IMG/VR virus record: IMGVR_UViG_3300049028_000001
DNA length: 52,963 bases
Reading direction: 5' to 3' (one strand)
From: a virus
The notes beneath the pieces were generated by a model. It had not been told where the DNA came from. It saw nothing but the letters and a program-made list of their open reading frames with translations, and searched no databases. Positions 462-30,677 of this stretch are shown here, in pieces (the first letter of the stretch is position 1; each line of letters begins with the position of its first letter). Made by a program: the position numbers and the translations under genes.

Positions 462-784
462 TATTTCTCCCAAACCATGACGACGTCTTCATCGTTTAAC
501 ACAAGCCACTCCTCATCACTATCGGGATCTTTTACAAATTTACCCCCATGTCGTGTATAAGAAATGGTATCACCTACTTTACACCAAGGATCTCCACCAA
601 AGTCTCGGAATGCTGTTGGGCCAATTTGTACTACAGTTCCTACATCAATAATTGTAGATTCTTGTCGTTGTGTTTTGTCTAGAATCAACAGTCCTGCTGC
701 TTTAGCAGAGGCAACTGCTTTATCTGCTTCTTCTAGTTTAATAGGCTTTACTAGGACTCTATGTCCGGGTGTTACTGGTTTCAT
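461..784 (-). CDS. GroES/Cpn10-like co-chaperonin
   Basis: 107 aa. KPVTPGHRVLVKP...GLLILDKTQRQESTIIDVGTVVQIG...VGDTISY...LVLNDEDVVMV follows the Cpn10 pattern (roof, mobile-loop region, GD..v, dil.v). Confidence 0.65.
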   Translation of the reverse strand: MKPVTPGHRVLVKPIKLEEADKAVASAKAAGLLILDKTQRQESTIIDVGTVVQIGPTAFRDFGGDPWCKVGDTISYTRHGGKFVKDPDSDEEWLVLNDEDVVMVWEK

Positions 785-941: not shown

Positions 942-3062
942 TTACCGGGTTTTCTTGCCAGTCTGTGACGTCTTGTTTTGAGATAATAATTTGCTTTGCT
1001 CCTTAGCTTGCATCATCTTTTGTTGGTGGGCTTGCTCATTATGAACAATACCCTGTTGCGCTTTCACAGTCTCCGCTTTAGCTTTGTTAGCTTCAGCAGC
1101 CATGAAAATCTTCTGTTTGTGAATCTCTACTGCACTTTGAAGCTGTGCCATCTGTGCTTGATGTTGCATCTGCATATCGTGCATCTGAGCTTCCATAGCC
1201 ATCTTTTGTTCTGCTTGACGACCTTCTAACTCCATCTTGAACTGATCATACTGTACCTTCATCTGATTCTTTTGCTGTTCGATTTGCATCTTCATCTGCA
1301 TTTCGAGTTGCTTAGGATCAGGCTGTGGTTGTACTTGACCTGTTTGTTGAATCTCTTGACTGAATAACTTTTCCCAATTAGGTTGTTCTTGGGCCTGTAA
1401 AATTCTTGAAATAACTTCTACAGGATCTAACATCCCCGTAGGCAGTAATTCCATCAGTCCTTGTGCTTTGAGGAGCTTTTCTGTTTGAGATACTGCTGTA
1501 GGATCTGCTCCGGGACAAATATCATAGGTTGGGTCATGGAAATCGTCTGGGCCCACTGGAGCATCCAGAATGTCCACATATGTCTGAGGATTGAGATAGA
1601 TTCCATTTAGTTTATATACCTTCTTGAACTCTTTCTCCAAGGCACGGTAAATACGCTTATACACAGCAGTAAATACCTTCATACCCTGCTCGATCGTAGC
1701 CATTGTGGTGGTAGCTGGAGTGTTCTGTCCTGGCATCTTACCTACGAAGATTTCAGCTACAGAGGCTAGTTCCTTACCTGAAGTAATTAATGAGCCCAGA
1801 AGCTCAAAAAGAACCTTACTCGGTTCATTTGCTGGTAAGGGTACAATCTGTTTCTTTAGATCCTCTCCAGTAGAATTAACAGGTTTCCACTCACCTGGAA
1901 TGAACTTCTCTTGTCCGGGTTTTAAGCGAAGACCTTTTCCAATAAAACCAGAAGATAGGTTGTTTAAAGTACCGTTGTCAACTAATTGATTAATTAATGT
2001 ATTAACAGCTTCATTAATAGGGCCTAGAAGAACACCAAAACCAATGTCATAAAAAGAACCATCGGGATTAGGTACAAAGGAAAACTTAGTGTAGTACTGA
2101 ATAGGCTCAATACGAACGATTTTTCCTTTATCATCTAGTTCCACATCTTCTAATTCATACCTGGGAACAATTCTAAGAACTTGTCCTTTAGAACGTTCAA
2201 AGGTTACAATATAGGGTTCTCGATAGCCATCATCATCTAAGTCTAGAAAGGTATGTTGTTCTACTAATTCATATGGTGTAGTTTCATCAATGACTACACT
2301 ACCTTTACTAAGAACAGGTTCTCCGAGATCAACGTCTAAGAAAATCTTAGCTCGCTTACGTTCTTCCATAACTCTCTCAGACATACGAATAATTTCAGAG
2401 ACTCGTTCCGCTGTTTCCAAGCATTCTGCATTGTTATTTACTACTAGATCTTTAGGTAGAACAAGATCACTCTGTACAATTTCTTTTGACTTATCCCAAT
2501 AAGTTTTCTTAAAGACAGTTCCAATGATAGGTAGCATAATTAGCAATCTATCCATATCTTCATCCCAGTGTTCCATCTGATTCATGAACTGGTATGAAAG
2601 GAAGGTTGCTACTCGATCTGCTTTATCTTTCTTTACTCCCTGAGGATCTTTACCAATAACCTTTCCTTTAACAATCTTTCCATCAGAAGGTAGTAAGGAA
2701 GGATATGCTCGTGCATTAAATTGCATCGAGGCAGTAGAAAGAAGGGGGTATTTAACGTTAGATGCTTTAGGCCAGGGATGATTTTTTTCTTCTCTTACCT
2801 GCATCGCTAACTTAGTCCAGTCCTCTAGATCTCGCTCCCATTGATCACGAGATTGAAGGTCTAGTTCAAAACCCTGTTTACACTCAGATCCGATGTCTGT
2901 TAGTTGATCTTCGTCTAAATCCGCAGCGATGTTTACAGAGCCTAGAAGCTTCTTACTGGCTTTGGAGTACTGGGCTTCTTGAGCTTCATCATCTTCAGTA
3001 CCCACAAATGGTACTTCTTCCATCCCCTCCTGCATCTGATTCGAATTCTCGTAGTTCATCAA
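942..3062 (-). CDS. portal protein with long Q/M/K-rich C-terminal extension
   Basis: 706 aa, immediately downstream of and overlapping the large terminase. Size and position are typical of a portal. The true start may be an internal Met, given the 68-nt overlap with TerL. Confidence 0.75.
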   Translation of the reverse strand: MMNYENSNQMQEGMEEVPFVGTEDDEAQEAQYSKASKKLLGSVNIAADLDEDQLTDIGSECKQGFELDLQSRDQWERDLEDWTKLAMQVREEKNHPWPKASNVKYPLLSTASMQFNARAYPSLLPSDGKIVKGKVIGKDPQGVKKDKADRVATFLSYQFMNQMEHWDEDMDRLLIMLPIIGTVFKKTYWDKSKEIVQSDLVLPKDLVVNNNAECLETAERVSEIIRMSERVMEERKRAKIFLDVDLGEPVLSKGSVVIDETTPYELVEQHTFLDLDDDGYREPYIVTFERSKGQVLRIVPRYELEDVELDDKGKIVRIEPIQYYTKFSFVPNPDGSFYDIGFGVLLGPINEAVNTLINQLVDNGTLNNLSSGFIGKGLRLKPGQEKFIPGEWKPVNSTGEDLKKQIVPLPANEPSKVLFELLGSLITSGKELASVAEIFVGKMPGQNTPATTTMATIEQGMKVFTAVYKRIYRALEKEFKKVYKLNGIYLNPQTYVDILDAPVGPDDFHDPTYDICPGADPTAVSQTEKLLKAQGLMELLPTGMLDPVEVISRILQAQEQPNWEKLFSQEIQQTGQVQPQPDPKQLEMQMKMQIEQQKNQMKVQYDQFKMELEGRQAEQKMAMEAQMHDMQMQHQAQMAQLQSAVEIHKQKIFMAAEANKAKAETVKAQQGIVHNEQAHQQKMMQAKEQSKLLSQNKTSQTGKKTR

Positions 3063-11480: not shown

Positions 11481-11679
11481 GTGTTTAGAAGGATATGTAG
11501 TTAAGTTCTACTATCAAAGTAAGCCTGTTAAAGCCTTATTCCTTGAGAAGCATGCAGCCGAACAGCATGCAATTAAATGGCACGGAACAATTAGTGAATT
11601 GTATTCTGACGTAGAAGACACATGTCAAGAAAGCCGAGTCTTACCGCGTTCGTCTACGATCGGCGAAATCGACTGTTAA
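11473..11679 (+). CDS. hypothetical protein
   Basis: 68-aa track ORF in operon orientation. It overlaps the neighbours at both ends. Confidence 0.35.
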   Translation: MVKCLEGYVVKFYYQSKPVKALFLEKHAAEQHAIKWHGTISELYSDVEDTCQESRVLPRSSTIGEIDC

Positions 11680-11930
11680 GTATCGGTCGTAATAGTTATG
11701 TAAAGACTCATCCCTTGATGGCCAAAGCTGCTAATCAGGTAGGAGAACCCACAAGGATCTATCTACATGCGGAAGTAGCAGCCCTAGTAAAGATTAGGGA
11801 TTGGTCTAAAGCGTATCGAATAGTAATCACCCGGTTTAATAAAGATGGAAACCCCGTTCTTGCGGCACCATGTGCCTGTTGCAGACACGTTATCTCCCAA
11901 ACAGGAATCAAACGAATCGAACACACCTAA
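11622..11930 (+). CDS. minimal cytidine/deoxycytidylate-deaminase-fold zinc protein
   Basis: HAEVAAL (H-A-E zinc/catalytic motif) and PCACCRHVI (PCxxC) at the canonical spacing, in only 102 aa. Confidence 0.6.
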   Translation: MSRKPSLTAFVYDRRNRLLSIGRNSYVKTHPLMAKAANQVGEPTRIYLHAEVAALVKIRDWSKAYRIVITRFNKDGNPVLAAPCACCRHVISQTGIKRIEHT

Positions 11931-12379: not shown

Positions 12380-12657
12380 TAAAGTTTGCTTTAGTGTCTT
12401 ATGGATATAATGAGTATGCTGAGACTTTCGATAGGTTAACTTATGGAGAAAGTAAAAACGACGTAAATGAGTTTTTAGCTAAATGGGACTATAAAGTAAA
12501 TTTAAATGGTGGTGAAATAACACACGCCAGATGCGTTGTCTTTGAATTTGATCCCAGTACAGGGGAAATGACTCCCGTTACTAATGAGAAGTTTTCACGA
12601 GTTAAGCCACTACCTAGAATGATCAACCGAAATGATAAACATCCTACTTCCCAGTAA
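12376..12657 (+). CDS. hypothetical protein
   Basis: 93-aa track ORF, translationally coupled upstream. Confidence 0.45.
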   Translation: MIKFALVSYGYNEYAETFDRLTYGESKNDVNEFLAKWDYKVNLNGGEITHARCVVFEFDPSTGEMTPVTNEKFSRVKPLPRMINRNDKHPTSQ

Positions 12658-12982
12658 GCGACCCATATTAGAACTACCCAATTACACAAAACAGCCATCT
12701 AAAAAGACTCTCTTTGAAGAAGCACAGCGCCGGGATTTAATCGTCCGTAATATTGCTGCTAAGCTTACATATGGACCCGGGGATTGGGTAACACCGAATA
12801 AACCAGAGAGTGTCAATGAATATGGGGATCGCGTTAAGATTCTACGCATCTGTGATACCTATGGTAAGTTCGGTAAAGATGAAGTTTGGCCAGAGAGTGA
12901 CAATCCGATGATTGTCCATGCGTGGTCAGAAAAGCTTGATACTACATTCATGTGTACTGCTAATTTTCTAGTTAAGAAATGA
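12632..12982 (+). CDS. hypothetical protein
   Basis: 116-aa track ORF. Its stop overlaps the start of the amidotransferase gene (ATGA). Confidence 0.45.
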   Translation: MINILLPSKRPILELPNYTKQPSKKTLFEEAQRRDLIVRNIAAKLTYGPGDWVTPNKPESVNEYGDRVKILRICDTYGKFGKDEVWPESDNPMIVHAWSEKLDTTFMCTANFLVKK

Positions 12983-13629
12983 CAACTCTAGGATACTCTC
13001 CTTATAACGCTCCCTCTTTCAATAATCCTATCTATCCTTTTGATACCCTGTTTGATAATCATATTGATTTAAAGCACCAAGAAACCCTAGATAATGTAGA
13101 TGCTGTAGTGTTGTGGGGTGGTACTGATATTTGCAGTCAACTCTACAATGAACCCAAGCATCGGTTTAGTTACGGACCTAACTACCCTTCAACGAGGGAC
13201 ATCTTCGAGTGGAATATCCTACGAGAAGCTATTCGATTAAAGAAACCAATCATTGGGGTATGCCGAGGAGCACAATTAATTTGTGCTTTTGCTGGAGGTA
13301 AACTAGTTCAAGACTGTACTGGGCATGGTGGGGGTAGTCATAGTATTACAACTTCTGATGATAAGCATTTCTCTGTGACTAGTTCTCATCACCAAATGAT
13401 GTTTCCCTTCAAGGTTAAGTATGAGATGCTGGCTTGGAGTACCACAAATCTTAGTAGAGAATATAATGGTATCTCTCCAGAGGAGGAGATGCAGATTGAA
13501 AAGGAACCTGAAGTAGTTTACTTCCCAGAGATTAATGCCATGGCAATTCAATGTCATCCAGAATGGCATAAAGCAGATGATCCATTTAATAAGTGGATTC
13601 TTGAGAAGATTACGGAGATTCAATTCTAA
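12979..13629 (+). CDS. class I glutamine amidotransferase / peptidase C26 (gamma-glutamyl hydrolase-like)
   Basis: Nucleophile elbow GVCRGAQL and a His-Glu pair in IQCHPEW. Size is about 216 aa. Confidence 0.65.
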   Translation: MTTLGYSPYNAPSFNNPIYPFDTLFDNHIDLKHQETLDNVDAVVLWGGTDICSQLYNEPKHRFSYGPNYPSTRDIFEWNILREAIRLKKPIIGVCRGAQLICAFAGGKLVQDCTGHGGGSHSITTSDDKHFSVTSSHHQMMFPFKVKYEMLAWSTTNLSREYNGISPEEEMQIEKEPEVVYFPEINAMAIQCHPEWHKADDPFNKWILEKITEIQF

Positions 13630-13667
13630 GGCGGATTCCGCCTAATAACAGTATTTGAGGATAAAAG

Positions 13668-14423
13668 ATGAGACTAGGTAGTGATCCAGAAGTGTTTCTA
13701 CAAGATCAGAGTGGGAAACACATCTCAGTTATCGGAATGATTGGTGCAGATAAGTGGAATCCTAAGCAGGTACCTGATATGCCTGAGGGGTTTACACTAC
13801 AGGAGGATAACGTATCGTTGGAGTTTGGTATTCCTCCTGCTCGTGACGCGGAGGAGTTTGCTAACAATATCGAATTGGTATTGAAGGCGGGTCTATCAAA
13901 CGTTAACGGCCTTCAGTTTAGTAAGCTTAGCTGTACGATCTTTCCTGAGGATCAGTTAGCTCATCCTATGGCATCGGTATTCGGCTGTGAACCAGACTTC
14001 AATGCATGGACAGGTTTAGAGAATCCACGCCCAACACCACCACATAAGGGTATGCGTAGTGCTGGGGGGCATGTACACATTGAGACTAAGGAGGATCCTC
14101 GTGTGGTTGTGCAAAATTGTGATGTGCACCTCGGGCTTGCTAGCGTTTTACTTGATGATGGTATTGAACGGAAGAAGGTTGGTTATGGAGCGGCTGGAGC
14201 GTTTCGCCCTAAACCTTATGGCGTTGAGTATCGGACTCTTTCTAATTTCTGGATTTTTAGTCCTAAGTTTTCCAAATGGATTTGGCGAGCTACTGAACGT
14301 GCGTTAGGTAATCTTCGGACATTTAACAACACCGAATCCGAATATATCCAGAAAGCTATCAATACGGGTAATCGTCGGATTGCCTCTGAACTAATTGAAT
14401 ATTTCCAGGTACTGATGCCATGA
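13668..14423 (+). CDS. phage COOH-NH2 ligase (glutamine-synthetase-fold, phiEco32-type) candidate
   Basis: GSDPEVFL at the N-terminus, LEFGIPP, GCEPDFNAW, AGGHVHIE and GVEYRTLSNFW resemble the phage type-2 COOH-NH2 ligase family recalled from comparative-genomics literature. Confidence 0.5.
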   Translation: MRLGSDPEVFLQDQSGKHISVIGMIGADKWNPKQVPDMPEGFTLQEDNVSLEFGIPPARDAEEFANNIELVLKAGLSNVNGLQFSKLSCTIFPEDQLAHPMASVFGCEPDFNAWTGLENPRPTPPHKGMRSAGGHVHIETKEDPRVVVQNCDVHLGLASVLLDDGIERKKVGYGAAGAFRPKPYGVEYRTLSNFWIFSPKFSKWIWRATERALGNLRTFNNTESEYIQKAINTGNRRIASELIEYFQVLMP

Positions 14424-14878
14424 AGATTCCTAAGCCGATTCTTGGATCTGCTCTTAAAGCCTACTTTATGGAGCATGTGAAGCCTATTCCCCAAGATACT
14501 CCCGGCTTCTATAGAGTAACCAGACCTCTTCACGTATTTAAGAGTACCCATCAATATAGGGATGGTGCTTTCTGTATTACTAATTTGATGATTCCTAAAG
14601 GGGCTTTTATTTATGCTCCTGATATCTGTTTCGCGGCTGGGCATCAGCCTAATGAGTATCATCATCGTAAGATGCGTGCCTCGTCGGCCTCTGTTCATTC
14701 TAACTTTACGAAAAGGACAAAGGAGAGAGTGCAGGAGGCTTCCTCTTGTTATTCTCCCATCTTTAAATATAAAGAAGGAACTAAGGTAAAGCCACAGATG
14801 CCTTTCTCTCATGAACCACATACTTGTGATTATGGAATCCATTTCTTTCTAAACCTTTACGATGCTTATAATTATTAA
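14420..14878 (+). CDS. hypothetical protein inside the ligase cassette
   Basis: 152 aa. ATGA coupling upstream, and the next ATG lies 3 nt after its stop. The 208-aa antisense track ORF is R/S/L-rich and judged a shadow. Confidence 0.45.
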   Translation: MKIPKPILGSALKAYFMEHVKPIPQDTPGFYRVTRPLHVFKSTHQYRDGAFCITNLMIPKGAFIYAPDICFAAGHQPNEYHHRKMRASSASVHSNFTKRTKERVQEASSCYSPIFKYKEGTKVKPQMPFSHEPHTCDYGIHFFLNLYDAYNY

Positions 14879-14880
14879 TC

Positions 14881-15480
14881 ATGTTTGTAGACTCTAATAA
14901 CTGGGACGACTGTAAGAAGTACTTTGAAGGTACTTGGGTTAAATTCAAAGAGGAGGGTGATAATACCATTTGGTATATCAATGAAGTAACCCCAAAACAT
15001 CTCTTTGCTAAAAGTGTAGATGAAAAGGAAATTATCGGGGTTGATCTAGAGATAGGATATACTCTCGATTATGTAATCCCAAAGAAGACAACTTATCAAT
15101 TACATGAGAGTGCTGTTAATCTTTCCAGGATTCCTGCAAGGCAATGGAAGAAGGGAATGAATAAACAGAATACCTTATTTCAAGTACTGACTGGAGACGG
15201 TATTTGGTTACCAGCACCATTCCAACCTGATGTAATTAATGGGTTTGTAAATAAACCGGGATATTACACTCCCCATGATGCACTCCGAGAATTCAAGGCT
15301 AGTGAACATCTCCGAAGCGCAGCCCTGAATCCGAGAATGTCCATTGCTAGGAATGGTACAATCTTTGTTGATACTGTGCTTGTCGCTAGGTTTGACGGGG
15401 AACGTTTGATCACGAAGAGTCTGTTTGTTCCTGAAATTTCGGCAATGTTCCCAGAATGGAAGATTAAGACAGTAAAATGA
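14881..15480 (+). CDS. hypothetical protein inside the ligase cassette
   Basis: 199-aa track ORF. Its stop overlaps the next start (ATGA). Confidence 0.5.
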   Translation: MFVDSNNWDDCKKYFEGTWVKFKEEGDNTIWYINEVTPKHLFAKSVDEKEIIGVDLEIGYTLDYVIPKKTTYQLHESAVNLSRIPARQWKKGMNKQNTLFQVLTGDGIWLPAPFQPDVINGFVNKPGYYTPHDALREFKASEHLRSAALNPRMSIARNGTIFVDTVLVARFDGERLITKSLFVPEISAMFPEWKIKTVK

Positions 15481-16283
15481 GCATGGAAGCTAAACCCGTA
15501 ATTGATATCAAAACTCACTTTGGATTACCAGTAAATTTTAAACTAAATAAATTTACTCCCAAACAGTTTGTGTGTGGGTGTGAGTTTGAGATTGAAAGTA
15601 TTCTGAATTGGGAGAATCTGGGAGGATTTGTATCAGTAGAAGAGGATCATTCTTTACGAAATAATGGTAAAGAATTCAAGACTCCTCCTGTAGGTTTTGA
15701 GTTGGCACTTGAAACTTTTAGGATTCTTCACGACAATATTAAGTTAGGACCGAATCCCTTTAGTGAGCGCACTTCTATTCATGTGCATGTAAATGTCCGT
15801 GACCTTTCCTTAAAGGACGTTCGCAATCTAATTCTAACGTATGCTCTACTAGAACCCCTGTTCTTTGAGTTTGCAGGAGAAACTCGTAAAGGCTCAATCT
15901 TCTGTGTACCTCTGAGTTATACATATCTACCTAGTCTATACAAGCATCCAATTACGATGCTTCTTGACAAGTGGAAGAATAATAAGTACACAGCATTTAA
16001 TCTGTTGCCTATTACTTCTTTTGGTACTGTGGAGTTTCGTCACCTTTATGGTACTGGTGATGAGCAAGTTTTTACAACGTGGTTAACTGCAATCAAAGAA
16101 CTATATGACTACGTTGTGAATCATCCCGAATTAGAAGTAACAGAACTTCTAAAGGAGCCTATTGCAAAAGTAGCCTTGGAAATTATTCCTTCACTAGCAA
16201 AGTTATATTCTGTTAATCGGATTACAGAACTAACACAGGATTCTGTAGTTGATATCAAACTGTCCAAAGGCGGGCTTAAATAA
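15477..16283 (+). CDS. Amidoligase_2-type putative amidoligase
   Basis: CGCEFEIES, EEDHSLRNNGKEFKTPP, TSIHVHVNV and GTVEFRHLYGT fit the putative amidoligase enzyme family pattern. Confidence 0.5.
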   Translation: MSMEAKPVIDIKTHFGLPVNFKLNKFTPKQFVCGCEFEIESILNWENLGGFVSVEEDHSLRNNGKEFKTPPVGFELALETFRILHDNIKLGPNPFSERTSIHVHVNVRDLSLKDVRNLILTYALLEPLFFEFAGETRKGSIFCVPLSYTYLPSLYKHPITMLLDKWKNNKYTAFNLLPITSFGTVEFRHLYGTGDEQVFTTWLTAIKELYDYVVNHPELEVTELLKEPIAKVALEIIPSLAKLYSVNRITELTQDSVVDIKLSKGGLK

Positions 16284-17435
16284 ATGTGTGGTCTTGTTGG
16301 AATGATTTTAAATACCACCAATGGACCAGTGTTTTCTGATGTTACAGCATTTGAAGAACTACTGTACATTGATGCATTGCGTGGTGAAGATTCAACTGGT
16401 GTAGCTGCTCTCTATAATAATGGAGATATGCAGGTCATTAAAGATTCCTGTGATGCTAATTACTTTCGATCCACCAAGGAATTTACAGACTTTAAACGGG
16501 ATTTTATTAGTAAAGGCCGTGTAGTATTAGGTCATAATCGAAAGAAGACTGTAGGAAAGATTGACCCTACAACCGCACATCCTTTTCTTATTAACGATCG
16601 CTTTGCTTTTACACATAACGGGACACTACACAACCACAAGAAACTAGCAAATACAGAAGTAGACAGTGAAGCTCTTGGTATTCATCTGACTGAATGTGAA
16701 GGAAGCCTAGTTAAGCTAGAGAAAGCTTTAGCAGAAGTAGAAGGTGCCTTTGCTTGTGCTTGGATCGATCAACAGACAGAAAAGGTATTCCTGTTACGGA
16801 ATACGGAACGGCCCTTGTATCTAGCTAAGACTCAGATTGGCTATATCTATGCTTCTGAGCCGGCTATGATTACCTTGGTGGCATTGCGTAATCGAATAAA
16901 AATCGATTCCATTGATCCTGTGGATACGGATACTTTATATACCTTCTCTCTCCCTAAAATCTATGGAGTAGATCTAACAAAAGATAAGCTGGTATACACA
17001 CCAAAAAAAGCCAAGCCCACTACGTACCATGGCAGCACCAAAGTAGTGGGCATGCATTCTACAGTGAAGGCTGCGAATAACTTTCTCAACTCTGATGTTT
17101 ACGGTACTAGCAAGAATGCCTTTAAAAGATTTCGTAATAAGAATCTTGGGAAGGTTGTTCCCTTCTATGTAGAAGACTTCGTAGAGAAGAACTACCCACA
17201 AAACGATGGAGACTGGCTACTCTTTGGTAAATGTGATTCTCTAGAAGTAAATCATATGGTTTGTGGTGTAGTTAAAAACGCAACCATGTATGCTATTGAA
17301 GAAGATTACATGAACCATTTAGCATATGGTCAGATCTTGAATGTTGAATATGATGAGATTTCTAAGTTGGTTAAGATTTCAGTTGGATCAATAACACTAG
17401 CAAAACCCCATGAAGCTGCGCTTACTAAGCACTAA
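16284..17435 (+). CDS. class II (Ntn) glutamine amidotransferase with a C-terminal domain of unknown function
   Basis: N-terminal MCGLVG with the nucleophile Cys at position 2. RGEDSTGVA, GHNRKKT and FTHNGTL are typical of the GATase-2 fold. About 170 extra C-terminal residues are unassigned. Confidence 0.65.
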   Translation: MCGLVGMILNTTNGPVFSDVTAFEELLYIDALRGEDSTGVAALYNNGDMQVIKDSCDANYFRSTKEFTDFKRDFISKGRVVLGHNRKKTVGKIDPTTAHPFLINDRFAFTHNGTLHNHKKLANTEVDSEALGIHLTECEGSLVKLEKALAEVEGAFACAWIDQQTEKVFLLRNTERPLYLAKTQIGYIYASEPAMITLVALRNRIKIDSIDPVDTDTLYTFSLPKIYGVDLTKDKLVYTPKKAKPTTYHGSTKVVGMHSTVKAANNFLNSDVYGTSKNAFKRFRNKNLGKVVPFYVEDFVEKNYPQNDGDWLLFGKCDSLEVNHMVCGVVKNATMYAIEEDYMNHLAYGQILNVEYDEISKLVKISVGSITLAKPHEAALTKH

Positions 17436-18096
17436 ACTAAAGTCACAGTCTTTAAAGAGACTGGCACAGGGTCTATCAACAGCGCTGGGCTATAAGGTCT
17501 GGCGTAGTTCTAAGCCAAAGCCTAATCGAAAGCATCTATTGTATGGTGACCAAATCTGTAAGATTGAACAGTATAAATGGTTTAAGCAGGAAGCAATTCC
17601 TAGCCTTGAGTTCACATTATCACAGGGAGAAGCACAAGAATGGGCTAAAGTGGCACCTGTGGTATGTAGAAAACTTACCAGGGCATCAGAAGGCAAGGGA
17701 ATTGTTATCGCAGAGTCGCCAGAACAAGTGGTGGTGGCTCCTGTGTATACGAAATATCGCAAAAAGAAGAAGGAATACAGGGTTCATGTGTTCAAGGGCA
17801 CGATCGTGCATGTACTAGAAAAGCGGAAACGTAAAGGTGTGGACGTTACTGAAACGAAAGTACGTAACACGGCTAATGGCTACGTCTTCTGCTCTGAGAA
17901 TGTTGTGGAGCCTGAAGGATTACGGGAACTAGCTCTAGCCGCTTCTAAGGTAACTAAGTCAGATTTTAAAGGGGTAGATATCGGCTACAATGAAAAGAAG
18001 AATGAGCTGTTTGTTATCGAAGTTAACTCTGCTCCTGGTATTGAAGGTTCTAACGTAGATCGATATGTCCAGGTCATCAAAGCAAACCTCTTCTGA
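17410..18096 (+). CDS. ATP-grasp family ligase candidate
   Basis: 228 aa. A K-rich central region (YTKYRKKKKEYRVHVF) and a C-terminal FVIEVNSAPG(I) resemble ATP-grasp core strands. It is adjacent to the amidoligases. Confidence 0.5.
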   Translation: MKLRLLSTKLKSQSLKRLAQGLSTALGYKVWRSSKPKPNRKHLLYGDQICKIEQYKWFKQEAIPSLEFTLSQGEAQEWAKVAPVVCRKLTRASEGKGIVIAESPEQVVVAPVYTKYRKKKKEYRVHVFKGTIVHVLEKRKRKGVDVTETKVRNTANGYVFCSENVVEPEGLRELALAASKVTKSDFKGVDIGYNEKKNELFVIEVNSAPGIEGSNVDRYVQVIKANLF

Positions 18097-18268: not shown

Positions 18269-18429
18269 AGATTAAATTTACAGGTGAAATTGAAATTCCT
18301 GATGGAGCAGATGACAGGGGTACTGTAGATTTTTGGGTTATCCAGACAATCGAACAAATCATACAGGACGGTCCCGAATCAGATGATATTTATGACAAGC
18401 TCAAGTTAACCTGGGACATTACAGAATGA
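18265..18429 (+). CDS. small hypothetical protein (54 aa, below track cutoff)
   Basis: MKIKFTGEIEIPDGADDRGTVDFWVIQTIEQIIQDGPESDDIYDKLKLTWDITE. ATGA overlaps at both ends. Confidence 0.4.
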   Translation: MKIKFTGEIEIPDGADDRGTVDFWVIQTIEQIIQDGPESDDIYDKLKLTWDITE

Positions 18430-19106
18430 ACATTACAATTACAAATAAAGGTAACTACGCAGAAGAGGGACAACCTAATCCTATGCGTTGGATGCTATTG
18501 AGTAAAAATGAAGACGGGTCATTCCAGAATGAAACTTCATGGCTACGGTGCAAAGACTTCTTCAATGACTTCGTGTGTGCTCGTCATACTGGGAAGTTCT
18601 TCCGTATCTATGGCTTCGATACCTCCAAGATGAACTTGGGTAATCCAGAAGAACCGGTGTATATTCTTCTAGATGTGCTTACTGAGCAGTTTGTATATAA
18701 TATGGGGACACTGAATACATGGCTAAAGGATGAACAGGGAATGCCCACGATTCCCTCTAGTCCTCAAGGCGAAGGTAAATATCTACTTACTGTAGATCCT
18801 GTGTATTTCAAGAATACCTATAATGTCTCCTTGATTACTCTGCTAATTCGGTTGATGAATATCTCACATGAGTTTCAAAGCTTTGATGAGGTATTGACTT
18901 ATAAGAAGTTCTTTGAAAAGGAAAAGCCTAAGTGGGATGAGGTAGTTAAGAAGGGACTCTTCTTCTCTAAGTTTCCTGAGAAGTTAAAGAAGTTTGTTTG
19001 GTATTGTGGTGATAAGTTCAACTCTGAAACTAAAGACCTACCAGAATATCAGCTAGCAAATCTAGTACATAATAATGGTGTACTGAATTGGGGACAATAT
19101 CTATAA
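18426..19106 (+). CDS. hypothetical protein
   Basis: 226-aa track ORF. No motif recognised. Confidence 0.55.
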   Translation: MNITITNKGNYAEEGQPNPMRWMLLSKNEDGSFQNETSWLRCKDFFNDFVCARHTGKFFRIYGFDTSKMNLGNPEEPVYILLDVLTEQFVYNMGTLNTWLKDEQGMPTIPSSPQGEGKYLLTVDPVYFKNTYNVSLITLLIRLMNISHEFQSFDEVLTYKKFFEKEKPKWDEVVKKGLFFSKFPEKLKKFVWYCGDKFNSETKDLPEYQLANLVHNNGVLNWGQYL

Positions 19107-19423
19107 TGAGTAAACCAGCACATAAGAATACTGAAAGACCACCGGGACAAATTGTGAATTCTGTTGATCCTGATCTAAAGTTCGCTAAAGCACAATATGA
19201 ACATGATCTAGACCTACGACCCCGTAGGTTAGGAGATATCATCGATCGAGTTAAACGACAAGAAGAGGGGGTGATTAAGACCTTTGACTATGAAGCTTGG
19301 AGAAAAACACTATGGGAATTGATTGATTACTACCGTACACACGCGGAACATGATGGTCAGTCCTATAGAGATTCAATTAAGCATCATCTAACACTACTAC
19401 CAAATAATAAAAATGCACTGTGA
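19106..19423 (+). CDS. hypothetical protein
   Basis: ATG at 19106 overlaps the previous TAA (TAATG) and is in frame with the track ORF from 19088. Confidence 0.5.
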   Translation: MSKPAHKNTERPPGQIVNSVDPDLKFAKAQYEHDLDLRPRRLGDIIDRVKRQEEGVIKTFDYEAWRKTLWELIDYYRTHAEHDGQSYRDSIKHHLTLLPNNKNAL

Positions 19424-19676
19424 TTGCTGTGATCGAATGCTGAGTGACTACGAATGTTCTATTAAACATCGTACTGAGGGGCATCACCTGAACACCTGTC
19501 TTAAATGCCTACAAGGCTTAGGTATTCCTTTTGTAGGGAATCAAGCCCTATCTCGTAAGCCTGTCTTAGAAGACGATGATGAGGTGATGCTGGATAATGA
19601 GAATAACTGTATGGATGATCTGATCTATACCAATATCGATAAGTTCTCTGAAGATAACGAGGAGTATGACGATTGA
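19413..19676 (+). CDS. zinc-ribbon protein with strongly acidic C-terminal tail
   Basis: CDCCDRM...TCLKC cysteine pairs, then EDDDEVMLDNENN...SEDNEEYDD. It lies directly upstream of the primase. Confidence 0.5.
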   Translation: MHCDCCDRMLSDYECSIKHRTEGHHLNTCLKCLQGLGIPFVGNQALSRKPVLEDDDEVMLDNENNCMDDLIYTNIDKFSEDNEEYDD

Positions 19677-20400
19677 TTACTTCAGGTTTCATACAAACTG
19701 TCCTAATTGCGGTTCAAGTGACGCTAGGGCTGTTTATGCTAGCGGTAGTAGCTTTTGCTTTAGTTGCCATAGGTTCAGCTCTGGGAACGTTTCTCCATAC
19801 GCTGTTCAAGAAACTGTTAGGGAAACTAAGGAAGTAGTTCTACCAGATGATGTTGGGTTTAATTATTCTCCTGAATGCTTAGAGTGGGTAAGTAAATATG
19901 GACTATCAACAAACGAACTTATCGAACGACGAGTCCTCTGGTCAGACTACAGACAACAACTCATCTTTACCTGGTATGATCAATCGGATAACCTTCTCCT
20001 GTGGCAAGCTCGTAACTTTAAACCCGGTGCTAAGAAATACTTTACCCGAGGAGTACCAGATGAATGTCTTCCCATTTACTACCATCGAAGTCCTACCGAA
20101 GGACAATCACTGGTAATTGTAGAAGACTGCATCAGTGCTATTAAAATAGCCCATATAAGCGATTCTATGCCTGTGCTGGGGTCAGATATCAACCGAGCTA
20201 AGTTATCGCGTCTACGGGCCTATTACGGGCCTTCCTGCCGGGTTGTGGTTTGGCTGGATGGAAACATGTACCACAAAGCCCAGCGAATTGCCCAGCGGAT
20301 GAACATGCTGGGGATGGATGCTAGGGCTGTTTACTCTGACTTAGACCCTAAGTGCTATAGTGATGAAGAAATTCGTAAAAAGGTGTTGACAAGTGACTAG
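19666..20400 (+). CDS. DNA primase (T7 gp4 N-terminal type: zinc ribbon plus TOPRIM)
   Basis: CPNCGSS...CFSCH zinc ribbon. TOPRIM Glu in LVIVEDCISAIK and an acidic motif in VVVWLDGNM. Confidence 0.75.
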   Translation: MTIDYFRFHTNCPNCGSSDARAVYASGSSFCFSCHRFSSGNVSPYAVQETVRETKEVVLPDDVGFNYSPECLEWVSKYGLSTNELIERRVLWSDYRQQLIFTWYDQSDNLLLWQARNFKPGAKKYFTRGVPDECLPIYYHRSPTEGQSLVIVEDCISAIKIAHISDSMPVLGSDINRAKLSRLRAYYGPSCRVVVWLDGNMYHKAQRIAQRMNMLGMDARAVYSDLDPKCYSDEEIRKKVLTSD

Positions 20401-22977: not shown

Positions 22978-23242
22978 ATATGAATGTCACATCACTACTT
23001 TTACTAGTAGTGCAGAAGTAGCTACAGAAGTGGCTAAAGAACTCCACTGGAAAACGTCAGAGATTGCACGAGATCCTGTACTAGGTAATGATACATATTT
23101 CTATTTAACTAGTCATAGTGATTCATATGATCGTATGTGGGAACGTATGGTAGAAGCAGTAAATTTACTAGAACTTAAGGGCTGTAAAGTAGTTCGAGAA
23201 AAAATTGAGCATATCGTCTATGACCGACGTTATAACCTCTGA
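22967..23242 (+). CDS. hypothetical protein
   Basis: In-frame ATG at 22967 within the track ORF from 22946. MQNKYECHITTF... Confidence 0.45.
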   Translation: MQNKYECHITTFTSSAEVATEVAKELHWKTSEIARDPVLGNDTYFYLTSHSDSYDRMWERMVEAVNLLELKGCKVVREKIEHIVYDRRYNL

Positions 23243-24359
23243 CTGGGAAGTAACAACACACAATATAGGCTCTCCATTTGATCCACGTAACAAAGCAGTT
23301 TGCTTAGGTATTAAAGAGGACAACAATGATACTTACTGTCTTAACTTTCTTGAGTATCAGAATTTAACTGCATTGAATACCAAGCTACAAGATAAACTAC
23401 TGGTATTCTTCAATGCTAAGTTCGACGTGCATTGGTATCGAAGGCTAGGTCTATCAAGTGTGCTGGAAAGTAAGATATGGTGTTGTCAGGTAGCTGAGTT
23501 TGTATTAGAGGGACAAACTAAACCATATCCAAGCCTTGAGAATACTGCTGTTAAGTACGGCTTAGGACATAAGATCGATGTAATCAAAGAAGAGTATTGG
23601 AGTAAGGGAATCAATACTGATGAGATTCCTACCCAAGTTCTTCATGAGTACTGTATCCAAGACGTAAATCTTACCTACCAGATTTATCTCAAACAACTAG
23701 AGCAATTTCAAAAGAGTCCTAAGCTCTTTGTACTATTCAAATTGATGTGTCAGGATCTGCTGGTCTTGGAGGAAATGGAATGGAATGGCTTGATATGTGA
23801 TGAGGAGTTGTGTAATCAGCGAGCGGAGGAATTAGATAAAGAAATACAACAAATCAGAGAACAACTATCTAACGTATATCCTGACATTCCCATTAACTTT
23901 GGTAGTAACGATCAGCTTAGTGCTTTCCTATACGGTGGTAAAATCCCTAGAAAAGTTAGCAAGCATGTAGGATTTTATAAGAACGGTAAACCTAAATATA
24001 AACTCGAAGATGAGCCTTGGGTACTACCACGATTAGTAGAGCCCATCAAGGGTTCAGAGATGCAAAAAGAAGGTGTGTATGCGACAGATGAAGCTACTTT
24101 ACGAAAGCTTAAAGGTCCGGCTGCAACTAAGTTTGTTGGTCCTTTACTTAGGTTGGCTGAACTTGAGAAACTATGTTCGACGTACTATCGAGGACTTCCT
24201 AAAATTATTGAAGAAATGAATTGGTCTAAAGGAGAGATCCACGGTAACTTCAATCAAGTAGTTGCAGCTACAGGGCGTCTGAGTAGCACAAAACCTAATC
24301 AACAGAACTTCAGTAGTGATTGTTTAGACGTCTTCATTTCGAGGTATAAGGATGGATGA
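23205..24359 (+). CDS. family A DNA polymerase, N-terminal part (3'-5' exonuclease plus thumb; ends just before motif A)
   Basis: Exo motifs SDWEV, FFNAKFDVHW and HEYCIQDVNLTY. Pre-motif-A TGRLSSTKPNQQNF. The ORF stops at ...FISRYKDG-TGA. The likely start is the ATG at 23220. Confidence 0.8.
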   Translation: MSISSMTDVITSDWEVTTHNIGSPFDPRNKAVCLGIKEDNNDTYCLNFLEYQNLTALNTKLQDKLLVFFNAKFDVHWYRRLGLSSVLESKIWCCQVAEFVLEGQTKPYPSLENTAVKYGLGHKIDVIKEEYWSKGINTDEIPTQVLHEYCIQDVNLTYQIYLKQLEQFQKSPKLFVLFKLMCQDLLVLEEMEWNGLICDEELCNQRAEELDKEIQQIREQLSNVYPDIPINFGSNDQLSAFLYGGKIPRKVSKHVGFYKNGKPKYKLEDEPWVLPRLVEPIKGSEMQKEGVYATDEATLRKLKGPAATKFVGPLLRLAELEKLCSTYYRGLPKIIEEMNWSKGEIHGNFNQVVAATGRLSSTKPNQQNFSSDCLDVFISRYKDG

Positions 24360-24656: not shown

Positions 24657-25379
24657 CGCGGCGCAACTTTAGAGTGGCGTACTGCGGTAGAACTGAGTAA
24701 TGATGAGGTAGGTCTAGCTGAGATATTAGAGAAACAGGATACGCACAGCCTCAACCAAGTTGCGTTCCAGTTACCATCTAGACTCATTGCTAAGATCTAT
24801 TTGTTTCGTACTATCTTCCGTGGTTCCGGTTGGAGCTTTGCTAATGATCCAAAATTTACTCACGTATCTAGTGATCCTAAATACTGGGATAAGGTAAACG
24901 AGAAATTCTATGCCAAGTACCATGGCTTAGATAAACAACATAAAGTGTGGGCTGACTTAGTAGTCCAAGGAAAGCCTATTGTAGGCCCTTTAGGGCGATT
25001 TTGGCCCATTGATATGGGTACGGACTACCGAGGTAATTTAAAGATCCCATGGACCGTTCTAAGCAATTACCCAGTACAGGGGACTGGGGCCGACGTGATG
25101 ACTATTGCACGTATATCCTTCTTCAATCGTATGAAGAAGTTGGGATTGTTTCAAAAGGGCGTGTTGCTAGTCTCATCAGTGCACGACAGTATTGTAGTGG
25201 ATGCCCCCGAAGAGCTCATTCAGGACATTACGAACCTTTTCCATCAGGTGTTCGATGCGTTGCAGATGAATATCTACAAGGTGTTCGGATATGAATGGCG
25301 AGTACCACTCGCTTGTGAGGTAAAGTATGGACCTAATATGAAATCAATGACAAAGATTGAGAGGACAGATGACATATAA
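24640..25379 (+). CDS. family A DNA polymerase, C-terminal part (motifs A, B, C); reading frame broken after codon 10
   Basis: GAGGG ribosome-binding site 5 nt before the ATG at 24640, giving MLVQADAAQL then TAG (24670..24672). The frame starting at 24672 continues EWRTAVELS...DTHSLNQVAF..RLIAKIYLFRTIFRG (motif B)...VSSVHDSIVVD (motif C). The track calls only 24801..25379. Confidence 0.7.
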
Positions 25380-28560: not shown

Positions 28561-29043
28561 ATGACTGGCTACGAACTTACTTACGTGAAAGAGTTAAATA
28601 CAAGATGTCTAAAATTTATAAAGCATTTGAAAACTATGATAGAGTGGGACGGTCTGATTTTACCACCAATTAATCTATATAATGTACCAAAGATGAACGC
28701 AAACGATAAACAAATTGGTGGAGATCACTACAAGAAATATAAGGGACTAGAGCCGTGGGATGTAGTACTAGCTTGGAATCTCGGATACCTAGAGGGCACT
28801 GCTCTTAAGTATATCGCTCGGTGGCGAGATAAGAACGGTATTGAAGACCTGAAGAAGGCTATCCACTTCCTAGAGAAGCTGATTGAAGTAGAAGGTATGA
28901 AACCCCAACCGGGGCAGGTTATGTACAACCAACAAAAGGTAGGTGATGGTACAGTAATATTTCAAGATAAGTCCATATACAAAGATACGATTGAAAAAGA
29001 ATGGTCCCAGCCGTGGGGCTCTGTTCTAGGATCTAAGAAATGA
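28561..29043 (+). CDS. DUF3310-like protein
   Basis: QIGGDHYKK...EPWDVV...GTALKYIARWRDKNGIEDLKKAIHFLEKLI fits the DUF3310 pattern remembered from phage genomes. Confidence 0.5.
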   Translation: MTGYELTYVKELNTRCLKFIKHLKTMIEWDGLILPPINLYNVPKMNANDKQIGGDHYKKYKGLEPWDVVLAWNLGYLEGTALKYIARWRDKNGIEDLKKAIHFLEKLIEVEGMKPQPGQVMYNQQKVGDGTVIFQDKSIYKDTIEKEWSQPWGSVLGSKK

Positions 29044-29351
29044 ACTTTAATCAGTATCAACGGAAGGCGATGAGCTTTCGATTACTAAGTGCCGGATACA
29101 TCTATGCTCTATTAAATCTCAGTGGGGAGGTAGGAGAACTCCATTCCTTGCTAGCTAAGAGCTTACGAGACGGACTTAAAGAAAATCACAAAGAACTAGT
29201 TAAGAAAGAGTTGGGTGATATTCTTTGGTGCCTGGCTGCTGTAGCTGATGATTGTGGATTCAAGCTAGAAGAAGTAGCTACAGGCAACATCGAGAAGCTT
29301 CAAGCACGTAAACAGAATAACACTATTCAGGGGTCAGGGGATGAGAGGTAA
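29040..29351 (+). CDS. mazG: MazG-like nucleoside triphosphate pyrophosphohydrolase
   Basis: GEVGELHSLLAK...VKKELGDILWCLAAVA gives the two EXXE/ELGD helices typical of MazG. Confidence 0.7.
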   Translation: MNFNQYQRKAMSFRLLSAGYIYALLNLSGEVGELHSLLAKSLRDGLKENHKELVKKELGDILWCLAAVADDCGFKLEEVATGNIEKLQARKQNNTIQGSGDER

Positions 29352-29354
29352 CGG

Positions 29355-29516
29355 GTGACGTATCATAATTTAGAAGAACTAAAAGAGTTGATCGCCTCTG
29401 AATTAGATGTAGATCAGATCTTGGATATCTTAGGGTGGGGAACATGGGAGCTAGTAGAAGCTCTTACGGATGAGATCAGGGAAAATCGAGATGACTTTGA
29501 GGATGCTATTAGATGA
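29355..29516 (+). CDS. small acidic hypothetical protein (53 aa)
   Basis: GTG start 4 nt after the MazG stop. Its stop is in an ATGA overlap with the next gene. Confidence 0.35.
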   Translation: MTYHNLEELKELIASELDVDQILDILGWGTWELVEALTDEIRENRDDFEDAIR

Positions 29517-29869
29517 AAGTAATTATTGCTGGTAGTCGTCACATGCCCATAGAAGACTACCCTTTAATTCATAGAGCAGTTTTAGCTTCCGGCTTTAATC
29601 TTACAGAGGTGGTTTCAGGCCATGCCAAAGGGGCAGATCAATTAGGTGAGTTTTATGCCAAACAAAAACAACTTCCTTGTAGAATATTTCCAGCTGATTG
29701 GCATACATATGGTAAAGCGGCAGGTCCCATTAGAAATAAACAAATGATGGAATACTCCGATGCAGCTATTGTCTTTATTTGGGATAATTCTCGTGGTTCT
29801 GCTAATATGATTAAACAAATGCAAGAGAATAATAAACCCGTTTTTATTGTTAAAAATGGGAAATTATAA
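29513..29869 (+). CDS. SLOG-fold / DUF2493 (YspA-like) protein
   Basis: VIIAGSR...VVSGHAKGADQLGEFYA...PADWHTYGKAAGPIRNKQM...AIVFIWD..SRGSANMI follows the DUF2493 pattern. Confidence 0.5.
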   Translation: MKVIIAGSRHMPIEDYPLIHRAVLASGFNLTEVVSGHAKGADQLGEFYAKQKQLPCRIFPADWHTYGKAAGPIRNKQMMEYSDAAIVFIWDNSRGSANMIKQMQENNKPVFIVKNGKL

Positions 29870-30085
29870 ATGAAAGAGAAGACATACAAAGAACGGGATA
29901 ACGAAAAGGCTCGCGGAAAGAAGAGATACCAAGAAAGAGTAATTGAAGAACACGAAGCAGAAAAAGAAATTAAGGAGTTTGATCGACATGAAGATATCCC
30001 CAATGAAAGTAGAACTGATCGACAGTATGGGGTCGGATTTATCTATCGTGAACGCCGCTCGCGTAAGTTTCCACAAGGAGAGTGA
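29870..30085 (+). CDS. highly charged hypothetical protein (overlaps thyX-like start)
   Basis: ATG immediately after the previous TAA. K/E/R-rich 71 aa. Its 3' 98 nt overlap the ThyX-like gene in another frame, so its extent and reality are uncertain. Confidence 0.25.
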   Translation: MKEKTYKERDNEKARGKKRYQERVIEEHEAEKEIKEFDRHEDIPNESRTDRQYGVGFIYRERRSRKFPQGE

Positions 30086-30677
30086 TTGGGAGTATCTATA
30101 TGACAATCACGATGGTCATGGTTTTGGAACCCTGTCTGTAAAAGATCAGAAGCTAATCAACTACCTAGCTACTCATAATCACTGGACTCCTTTTGCTCAC
30201 GCCTTTATGTCGTTCCGAATAAAGGCTCCTATCTTTGTTGCTCGTCAGTTGGTTAAGCATCAGGTAGGCTTGGTATGGAATGAGGTATCTCGAAGATATG
30301 TTGACGACGAGCCTGAATTCTGGTTTCCTATGGAATGGCGGGGAAAACCAGTAAATGCTAAACAGGGTAGTTCAGGTGATGCCCCTCCATATGCATACTC
30401 ACTAGGTATGGAAAAAGTTCTAATTCCTGTATTAGAACAATATAATTGGATGATTGAAACAGGAGTAGCACCCGAACAAGCTCGTATGGTACTACCACTT
30501 AACTGTTTAACGGAATGGATCTGGAGTGGTAGTTTAGTTGCCTTTGCTCGGGTATGTAAACTACGCCTCGATCCGCACGCACAACTTGAATGCCAAGAAG
30601 TAGCAAAGAAGATCTATGACTTGGTTCCAGATGATTTCGAGCACTCATGGAGTGCACTAATGGGAGAAACAAAATAA
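29988..30677 (+). CDS. thyX: ThyX-like flavin-dependent thymidylate synthase homolog (atypical signature)
   Basis: TAAGGAG ribosome-binding site 10 nt before the ATG at 29988. [45 protein letters not shown] and [11 protein letters not shown] align with T. maritima ThyX. The canonical RHR is KHQ here. Confidence 0.7.
   Translation: [229 protein letters not shown]

Follow-up and report, generated by a model that had tools for sequence, protein, structure and literature searches.

A divergent phage copy of the phiEco32-type amidoligase and amidotransferase cassette, its conserved six-gene unit and its possible chemistry

What does a phage make with three ligases and two amidotransferases encoded in one locus? 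The question is raised by positions 12979-18096 of a 52,963-nucleotide stretch of viral DNA (IMG/VR record IMGVR_UViG_3300049028_000001; the whole stretch is referred to as the window), where seven plus-strand genes, named g1 to g7 in order, were taken by an earlier note, made from the sequence alone, to be a seven-gene cassette with no known product. The results showed that the locus is a divergent copy of a known phage cassette lacking an assigned product, of the type found in phiEco32, LUZ24, PA11 and Zobellviridae phages, and that it lies in the early-to-middle plus-strand block, just upstream of the primase and helicase genes, with an unrelated DUF5758 gene inserted in it. As to its function, a cytoplasmic pathway making glutamine-dependent amide bonds is the reading that we consider probable.

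The source contig is a complete, podovirus-like phage of about 53 kb and was assembled repeatedly from different samples. Its portal and tail genes are on the minus strand, and its long plus-strand early/middle block includes genes for primase, DnaB, a split DNA polymerase, an exonuclease, ThyX, MazG and a split ribonucleotide reductase. No nucleotide-level match to the window was found in 50,697 phage records. Protein relatives of the g6 amidotransferase, which is of the N-terminal nucleophile (Ntn) type, were found in 322 deposited phage records, all at less than 60% identity; among the carriers are the Pseudomonas phages PA11, TC6, O4, Bjorn and UFV-P2, Salinivibrio phage CW02, Vibrio Zobellviridae, E. 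coli Kuravirus and Alcaligenes phage QDWS535.

The comparison took in 98 related loci. For the family counts, 96 loci were used, 43 from IMG/VR collected with the g2 protein and 53 from species genomes with the g2 profile, and their open reading frames (ORFs) were labelled with family hidden Markov models (HMMs). Many of these loci are truncated by contig ends, and the early comparisons (the tblastn search with g3, the first g4 HMM and the first count of GGCT genes) covered the first 45 related loci. The 53 g2-profile matches in the genome collections were mostly contigs of metagenome-assembled genomes, many of them about 45-55 kb long, which is the size of a whole phage genome, and the cassette family is thus effectively phage-restricted.

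The COOH-NH2 ligase gene (CNlig, g2) was present in 92 of the 96 loci, the gene of the Ntn glutamine amidotransferase (GATase, g6) in 76, that of the Amidoligase_2 enzyme (g5) in 75, that of the C26 amidotransferase (g1) in 71, the ATP-grasp gene (g7) in 63, g4 in 56 and GGCT in 15. The commonest full order, found in 22 loci, was that of the window, namely C26, CNlig, g4, Amidoligase_2, Ntn and ATP-grasp. Adjacent pairs were counted most often for CNlig and g4 and for g4 and Amidoligase_2 (54 loci each), followed by C26 and CNlig (46 loci) and Amidoligase_2 and Ntn (43 loci), and of the 56 loci in which g4 was labelled, 54 had it flanked immediately by CNlig on one side and Amidoligase_2 on the other. 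The identical order is annotated in Alcaligenes phage QDWS535 and Pseudomonas phage UFV-P2, and the HMMs gave the order CNlig, g4, Amidoligase_2, Ntn, ATP-grasp, GGCT and primase/helicase in the E. coli Kuravirus E20-1, in which g4 was matched at 1.2e-8. Primase and DnaB genes usually lie downstream of the cassette in the related loci, and in the window the primase gene (19666-20400) is downstream as well, the window also containing DnaB, DNA polymerase, portal and tail genes. Since the order of the families is conserved in most of the 96 related loci, their co-occurrence is not a matter of chance, and the genes are passed on together as one block beside the replication genes.

The cassette most similar to the one in the window is the phiEco32-type cassette, which has COOH-NH2_lig, the g4 family, Amidoligase_2, Ntn GATase and ATP-grasp in the same order and upstream of primase/helicase, in phages such as E20-1, UFV-P2 (LUZ24-like), PA11/TC6, QDWS535 and the Vibrio Zobellviridae. 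The window copy differs in its identity of less than 60%, in having C26, in lacking GGCT and in the DUF5758 insertion, and its Ntn protein has 383 residues in comparison to 470-667, with a strand-rich C-terminal domain and a tail ending in histidine.

Because g3 has no counterpart in the related loci and g4 holds a core position, the conserved unit comprises six genes built around an unchanging CNlig-g4-Amidoligase_2 triad, so that the seven-gene unit first described has to be reduced by one. The g3 product matched DUF5758 in Pfam (2.8e-6, 27.7 bits against a cut-off of 26.9) and phrog_9562 at 1.8e-29, which means that of the two proteins earlier described as having no recognisable motif, only g4 keeps that description, with no match in Pfam or NCBIfam. 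A tblastn search with g3 found no match in the 45 related loci, its sole match among deposited phages was a paralog family at six places in the 156-kb Acidovorax phage ACP17, and the g3 arrangement was repeated in three of four other contigs among the matches listed. The g3 gene is a lineage-specific insertion outside the conserved cassette, fixed in this phage. As a separate observation, the six places in ACP17 suggest a mobile or expanding accessory family.

The seven plus-strand ORFs were all recovered where the earlier note had placed them (Table 1), and the motifs GVCRGAQL, QCHPEW, CGCEFEIES...EFRH and MCGLVG that it had listed were each found in the translations. Going downstream, g1 and g2 are separated by 38 nt, g2 and g3 overlap by 4 nt, g3 and g4 are 2 nt apart, g4 and g5 again overlap by 4 nt, g5 and g6 abut with a 0-nt gap, and the g6 stop overlaps the g7 start by 26 nt; an upstream ORF (12632-12982) overlaps g1 by 4 nt. 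Such packing is not special to these seven genes and is typical of the plus-strand block of about 10.5-34 kb, in which nearly all genes are tightly packed and co-directional.

Table 1. Cassette genes, the parts of g6 and a neighbouring gene, with positions in the window (aa, amino acids)
Feature	Position	Strand	Length	Assignment or extent
g1	12979..13629	+	216 aa	class I (triad) GATase / peptidase C26-type gamma-glutamyl hydrolase
g2	13668..14423	+	251 aa	phiEco32-type COOH-NH2 ligase type 2, by Pfam family
g3	14420..14878	+	152 aa	DUF5758 protein
g4	14881..15480	+	199 aa	conserved core protein, function unassigned by families
g5	15477..16283	+	268 aa	Amidoligase_2-type carboxylate-amine ligase
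g6	16284..17435	+	383 aa	class II Ntn glutamine amidotransferase / gamma-glutamyl amidohydrolase
g6, N-terminal Ntn domain	16284..16991	+		residues 1-236
g6, linker, small C-terminal domain and tail	16992..17435	+		residues 237-383
g7	17410..18096	+	228 aa	RimK-family ATP-grasp carboxylate-amine ligase, N-terminal domain reduced
possible accessory gene	18426..19106	+	226 aa	often after the ATP-grasp gene

Pfam and PHROG scans covered 52 window ORFs, that is, those other than most of the structural-region ORFs and the very small ones; Pfam matches were judged by the curated gathering cut-offs and NCBIfam matches by the equivalog or subfamily cut-offs. The five enzyme-family assignments of the earlier note were confirmed in this way, all of them scoring above the gathering cut-offs of Pfam. 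Among the ligases, g2 matched COOH-NH2_lig (PF14395, a family named after phage phiEco32) at 2e-10 with 40.8 bits against a cut-off of 25, and phrog_3815, annotated as 'COOH.NH2 ligase', at 1e-69, with E8, E52, E108, H135, H137, R180, E187 and R189 invariant or near-invariant (at least 90% across the loci). The g5 product matched Amidoligase_2 (PF12224) at 2.7e-9 and phrog_7469 at 4.9e-26, and its invariant residues are E36-x-E38-x-E40, H102-x-H104, E186 and R188 (again at least 90%). Neither g2 nor g5 had relatives in the PDB by single sequence or by profile, and no homology was detectable between their two profiles (hhalign probability 0.9%).

The third ligase, g7, matched the RimK ATP-grasp family (PF08443) at 3.9e-8 with 33.6 bits against a cut-off of 21, and phrog_2599 at 9.6e-40. 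It shares with the RimK, LysX, CofF and MptN ligases a RimK domain above the Pfam cut-off and keeps D190 and E204-x-N206, the latter being the EVN motif, at 90% conservation or more, and K138 and R152 are conserved too. It differs from these ligases in that its N-terminal domain is cut to about 50 residues and in that its weak NCBIfam matches to MptN, CofF, RimK and LysX were all below the cut-offs, with 22.4 bits against 143 for rimK_fam, 20.3 against 331 for the S6-glutamate ligase and 16.1 against 276 for LysX. The protein is strongly basic, with an isoelectric point (pI) of 9.8.

Of the two amidotransferases, g1 matched Peptidase_C26 (4e-18) and GATase (4.6e-11) in Pfam and phrog_7218 at 9.7e-31, and its triad of Cys95, His193 and Glu195 is conserved at 90% or above in 38 homologs. 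Its best NCBIfam match was to a gamma-glutamyl-CDP-amidate hydrolase (2.9e-14; 53.6 bits against a cut-off of 250). The g6 protein matched GATase_6 at 2.2e-15, and GATase_7 and GATase_4 as well, over residues about 1-200 only. It has Cys2 right after the initiator Met, and C2, R86, N112, G113 and D127 are found in at least 90% of the sequences across the loci, S128 being conserved too; R86, N112-G113 and D127 follow the order of the Arg, Asn-Gly and Asp of the glutamine site in GlmS and PurF, an assignment made by order and without superposition. With catalytic residues kept at this level (90% or more) throughout the related loci, all five enzymes look active as judged from their sequences.

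The pairing of a ligase assigned to a glutamine-synthetase-like family with a C26 hydrolase had led the earlier note to the logic of PuuA and PuuD from E. coli, in which a gamma-glutamyl group is added and later removed. Under such chemistry the ligase would gamma-glutamylate a polyamine or another amine and the C26 enzyme would remove the group, leaving a product either free or attached to a macromolecule. The two genes are indeed adjacent in 46 loci, the NCBIfam matches of g1 include PuuD besides the gamma-glutamyl-CDP-amidate hydrolase, and GGCT, another enzyme removing gamma-glutamyl groups, is encoded in 15 related loci. However, g1 scored only 19.7 bits against the PuuD equivalog NF008471, the cut-off of which is 266, and g2 and g5 matched only PF14395 and PF12224 and not the glutamine-synthetase catalytic-domain family, to which PuuA belongs. 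An amine oxidase or aldehyde dehydrogenase corresponding to PuuB and PuuC was not found in the window ORFs scanned, and the Puu system has no counterpart of g4, of the second amidotransferase or of two of the three ligases. The count of GGCT by HMM was 8 in the first 45 loci and 15 in the later 96, and the GGCT (AIG2) HMM found nothing among the window ORFs; the idea that C26 and GGCT serve as alternative removers was rejected, as several loci carry both and the two are thus not complementary. The Puu parallel was therefore not borne out on these three counts of hydrolase score, ligase family and companion enzymes, and we hold it to be improbable, while a gamma-glutamyl or polyamine conjugate as such is possible and has support no better than that of other acceptors.

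The AlphaFold2 (AF2) model of g6 had a mean predicted local distance difference test (pLDDT) score of 89.1 over the whole protein and high confidence over the Ntn domain, for which Foldseek returned GlmS, PurF and EgtC at about 1e-13 to 1e-11. Residues 237-276 form a linker, with pLDDT below 50 at 247-272, a disordered stretch, and residues 277-375 form a small domain which, by DSSP assignment on the model, consists of a helix and five strands with a further helix between strands 3 and 4. The C-terminal region alone had no match in Pfam, as the earlier note had said, and its 147 residues contain none of the known synthase or acceptor domains (SIS, PRTase, asparagine synthetase). On the evidence of the model, g6 carries a small, exchangeable, tethered C-terminal module in place of a synthase domain. 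The flexible and variable tail ends in His383, and a final His is found in most of 59 close homologs; across the wider loci, it is found in 23 of 78 proteins, and other Ntn subgroups have CxxC...CxxC motifs at their C-terminal end. A C-terminal His as a universal feature of the Ntn enzyme was thus rejected, and it is a subgroup trait.

Such a tail could itself be a substrate. RimK modifies ribosomal protein S6, LysX modifies LysW and PafA carries out pupylation, and in a similar manner g7, g2 and g5 might extend a protein of the host or the phage by amino acids or by a short tag in amide linkage, the g6 tail being one conceivable acceptor. RimK and LysX work on protein C-termini, g7 belongs to the RimK family with its weak matches to RimK, LysX, CofF and MptN, and the g6 tail is disordered, variable, His-ended in most close homologs and encoded where the g6 stop overlaps the g7 start. 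A modification of host proteins has been proposed for phage ATP-grasp enzymes of the related R2K clade (Burroughs et al. 2015). On the other hand, the terminal His occurs in no more than the 23 of 78 proteins given above, a conserved acceptor protein was not identified, Lys91 of g4 tolerates Arg, which argues against a modified lysine, and the NCBIfam scores for RimK and LysX were far under the cut-offs, so that we regard protein tagging or tailing as unlikely.

The remaining member of the conserved unit, g4, is a core, non-catalytic-looking partner within the cassette. It had no match in Pfam or NCBIfam, as said, and a marginal one in PHROG (phrog_4877, 4.7e-4), but of the first 45 loci, 41 gave a match to the iterated HMM. 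When 1.84 billion representatives were searched with the profile, 752 cluster representatives matched at E <= 0.001. With few exceptions these are stand-alone proteins of 190-210 residues, no fusion to a known domain was seen in the best 150 of the 752, and a pattern search of 185,579 species genomes found no relative. From 243 members the family signature is D10 ... P67 ... R83-x-P85-x-[RK]87-x-[WFY]89-x-[KR]91-G92 ... N97, and the family is mildly basic, with a median pI of 8.7. The AF2 model of g4 (pLDDT 92.8; predicted template modelling score, pTM, 0.84) is mostly beta-strand. It had no fold match in the PDB at E <= 0.001, nor did g4 have sequence relatives there by single sequence or profile, and its weak fold matches, with template modelling (TM) scores of 0.2-0.3, were to SH3-like, KOW and Tudor barrels and EF-P/eIF5A. 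In BFVD the model matched solely uncharacterised phage proteins, including one of Salinivibrio phage CW02, a carrier of the Ntn gene. The idea that g4 serves as a carrier modified on a lysine, in the manner of EF-P or eIF5A, was rejected as unlikely, in view of these weak fold matches and of the tolerance of Arg at position 91, and no homology was found between g4 and the C-terminal domain of g6 (hhalign probability 0.2%).

Taken in the order of the chemistry, the probable pathway would run as follows. In the cytoplasm of the infected cell, the three ATP-dependent ligases g2, g5 and g7 would each activate a carboxylate and join it to an amine or to ammonia, making successive amide bonds, and the two glutaminases with a cysteine nucleophile, g1 and g6, would supply the ammonia from glutamine or, alternatively, strip a transient gamma-glutamyl group. 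The g4 protein would most likely hold an anionic acceptor through its Arg/Lys-rich loop or bridge g2 and g5, and the C-terminal module of g6 would most likely dock g6, on its flexible linker, to a partner or to the acceptor. The product would be an amidated, gamma-glutamyl- or peptide-like adduct. We infer the chemistry, the order of the steps and the roles of g4 and the g6 module, and several points weigh against this pathway. The chemistry is drawn from family membership, and the glutamine-synthetase-like fold of g2 and g5 rests on their Pfam family assignment, their profiles matching neither a PDB sequence nor one another. The class I and class II amidotransferases could both be hydrolases and not ammonia donors, g4 may prove to be a novel type of enzyme and not a scaffold, and a step removing a gamma-glutamyl group is not universal, since GGCT is present in 15 related loci and absent here.

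By analogy with the synthesis of glutathione and of N-acetylglutaminylglutamine amide (NAGGN), the acceptor is quite possibly a free small molecule; a protein or a precursor of the cell wall or envelope is possible as well, at a more tentative level, a nucleic acid (DNA or tRNA) is an unlikely acceptor, and something else altogether an improbable one. The median pI of 8.7 of the g4 family and the pI of 9.8 of g7 suggest, at the level of sequence, that the acceptor may be acidic. In NAGGN synthesis, the ATP-grasp ligase Ngg and the Ntn amidotransferase AsnO, which amidates a carboxylate, give a small amidated peptide. The cassette resembles this system in combining an ATP-grasp ligase with a class II amidotransferase, and g6 had a weak match to the NAGGN amidotransferase (2e-5), but this match was at 23 bits in comparison to 570, and the cassette has no GNAT (acetyltransferase) domain and no synthase domain of the asparagine-synthetase type, and has two more ligases, both assigned by Pfam to glutamine-synthetase-like families.

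A further reading is that the cassette consists of auxiliary metabolic genes, which would raise the nitrogen, glutamine or glutathione metabolism of the host during infection. The folds run parallel to those of the gamma-glutamyl cycle, with a glutamate-cysteine-ligase-like ligase, an ATP-grasp synthetase, an Ntn hydrolase and GGCT. One study proposed that a phage with amidoligase, GATase, 'glutathione synthase' and GGCT genes aids host nitrogen metabolism, a published claim made without gene-level tests. The families of the cassette are phage-specific, with zero equivalog-level matches in NCBIfam and with 'genome' matches that are phage-like contigs, and a phage-specific g4 together with the synteny with replication genes is ill-suited to a generic metabolic boost. 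We thus consider a metabolic role of this kind highly improbable.

Another possible destination for amide bonds is the cell envelope, in which case the cassette would amidate or extend free carboxylates of cytoplasmic peptidoglycan or polysaccharide precursors and so change the envelope of the host during infection, for example excluding superinfecting phages. The amidation of Gram-positive peptidoglycan is carried out by a GATase together with an ATP-dependent ligase (MurT/GatD; AsnB/LtsA), and the three free carboxylates of the stem peptide equal the three ligases in number, a numerology that carries no evidential weight. Papers citing Iyer et al. (2009) ascribe this proposal to them, giving their suggestion as cell-wall modification or a secondary metabolite. 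In addition, in each of two evolved P. aeruginosa phage lines, missense changes were reported in the amidoligase and GATase genes, which by analogy may place the cassette under selection, and these mutations arose under selection for improved killing of biofilm cells. Against an envelope target, no Mur-ligase or envelope-related domains were found in the cassette with Pfam and NCBIfam, the cassette sits in the replication module away from the lysis and structural genes, and amidoligase and GATase pairs have also been reported in viruses of marine archaea and of OM43 bacteria, hosts with different envelopes. On balance, an envelope target has a low probability. As for the absence of an established phenotype noted earlier, it stands for a defined phenotype, and has to be qualified by two indirect items, namely these missense mutations and the untested claim of growth promotion made for the phage above.

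Attachment to DNA bases had been named in the earlier note among the possible fates of the product. In a nucleic-acid hypermodification of this sort, like that of CmoY, the ligases would act on a base that bears a carboxyl group, in the DNA of the phage or in tRNA of the host, either amidating it or attaching amines to it. CmoY is a phage ATP-dependent amide ligase that puts glycine onto 5-carboxymethylcytosine in DNA, and some of its homologs bear a glutaminase domain (Nat Commun 2025, PMC12783734). It thus resembles the cassette ligases as a phage amide ligase shown able to act on DNA, and it provides a precedent. According to the literature, amidoligase/amidotransferase genes co-occur with thymidine-hypermodification genes in metagenomic contigs, and the cassette is directly upstream of primase/helicase in several phage families. 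The g4 protein is beta-rich and basic and the C-terminal modules of the Ntn enzymes are strand-rich or Zn-ribbon-like, both of which are common in nucleic-acid binders and are no more than suggestive. However, CmoY is an AMP-forming asparagine-synthetase homolog, from a superfamily other than those of the cassette ligases, and needs CmoA and CmoX for its carboxyl handle (PMC12783734). In the window, the thymidylate synthase is ThyX (Thy1, 1.5e-43) and not a hydroxymethylase, and among the 52 ORFs scanned there was no dUMP/dCMP hydroxymethylase, 5-hydroxymethyluracil DNA kinase, aGPT-Pplase (a transferase of thymidine hypermodification), transglycosylase, Cx-SAM synthase, CmoA/CmoX-like methyltransferase or other C5-methyltransferase. 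To our knowledge, hypermodified DNA has not been reported for the cultured phages that carry the cassette, although these are routinely sequenced and digested. With ThyX as the thymidylate synthase and no handle-making enzyme among the ORFs scanned, the suggested attachment to DNA bases found no support, and nucleic-acid hypermodification by the cassette is improbable as well.

A wider form of macromolecule-directed amide tagging, in place of a small-molecule pathway, would combine several of these elements, in that g4 and the tethered g6 module would recruit the three ligases to a protein or a nucleic acid, the latter being phage DNA or a modified host tRNA base with a carboxyl group, where an amidated gamma-glutamyl or peptidyl adduct would shield the phage from the defences of the host. 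We regard this joint claim as doubtful; if true, it would be a new class of phage-encoded modification in many podophage lineages.

Several neighbouring genes were recorded along with the probable pathway for glutamine-dependent amide bonds. The family of the 226-aa protein listed last in Table 1 was found in 19 loci, in several of them directly after the ATP-grasp gene; it had no match in Pfam, PHROG or NCBIfam and is a possible accessory of the cassette. The PADLOC models of defence systems gave zero matches, this ORF included. The ORF at 19413-19676 (plus strand) encodes a small zinc-ribbon protein (CxxC...CxxC) whose C-terminal tail is long and acidic. Its family lies between the ATP-grasp gene and the primase in 23 related loci, and it may assist the replisome or have a link to the cassette. 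A GcvH/lipoyl-domain-like protein, judged by eye, follows the ATP-grasp gene in six related loci (L001, 9130-9414; L019, 12928-13338; L026, 9868-10308; L027, 12801-13244; L053; L054) and has no member in the window; where lipoylation would normally take place, the family does not conserve the lysine. The deaminase-fold gene that had been described as next to the cassette is present at 11622-11930 (plus strand) but lies three genes upstream and is not adjacent. It encodes a minimal cytidine/dCMP-deaminase-fold protein of 102 residues with an HAE...PCxxC motif, matching dCMP_cyt_deam_1 at 3.1e-5 (24.2 bits against a cut-off of 25) and a PHROG dCMP deaminase at 1.8e-9, and about eight related loci likewise have such a gene shortly before the cassette, at a distance of a few genes.

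Elsewhere in the window, a Cpn10/GroES-like co-chaperonin gene (461-784, minus strand; Pfam Cpn10, 1.4e-7) adjoins the portal gene (942-3062, minus strand). On the plus strand, the DNA polymerase is split into ORFs 23205-24359 and 24801-25379 and the ribonucleotide reductase into ORFs 30647-31381 and 33297-34142, with endonuclease-like ORFs (31412-32176 and 32767-33240) between the halves of the latter, and the split genes are candidates for intron or homing-endonuclease insertions. A run of nucleotide-related genes, DUF3310 (28561-29043), MazG (29040-29351) and a SLOG/YspA-like gene (29513-29869), all on the plus strand, precedes ThyX (29943-30677).

That comparative genomics had already noted such cassettes, as the earlier note said, agrees with the name of the Pfam family of g2 and with later papers, which credit Iyer et al. 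(2009) with recognising the phage amidoligase/amidotransferase genes. Papers of 2023 and 2025 still call the function of the cassette unexplored, and in the literature searched to mid-2026 no product, substrate or defined function was found, in agreement with the earlier statement that no product or substrate had been established.

The cassette is among the most widespread multi-enzyme modules of unassigned function in tailed phages, its carriers including the E. coli Kuravirus, therapeutic-candidate Pseudomonas phages (LUZ24-like and PA11-like) and marine Zobellviridae. For experiments the metagenomic copy offers little of its own, as the cassette is already available in cultured phages of E. 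coli and Pseudomonas; what the comparison contributes is the six-gene core, g4 as an obligatory partner unmatched in structure, and conserved residues for mutagenesis. A product has been lacking since 2009, and solving the chemistry would give a function to about 750 g4 families and to the enzyme set around them, and might uncover a novel metabolite or modification that phages employ during infection.

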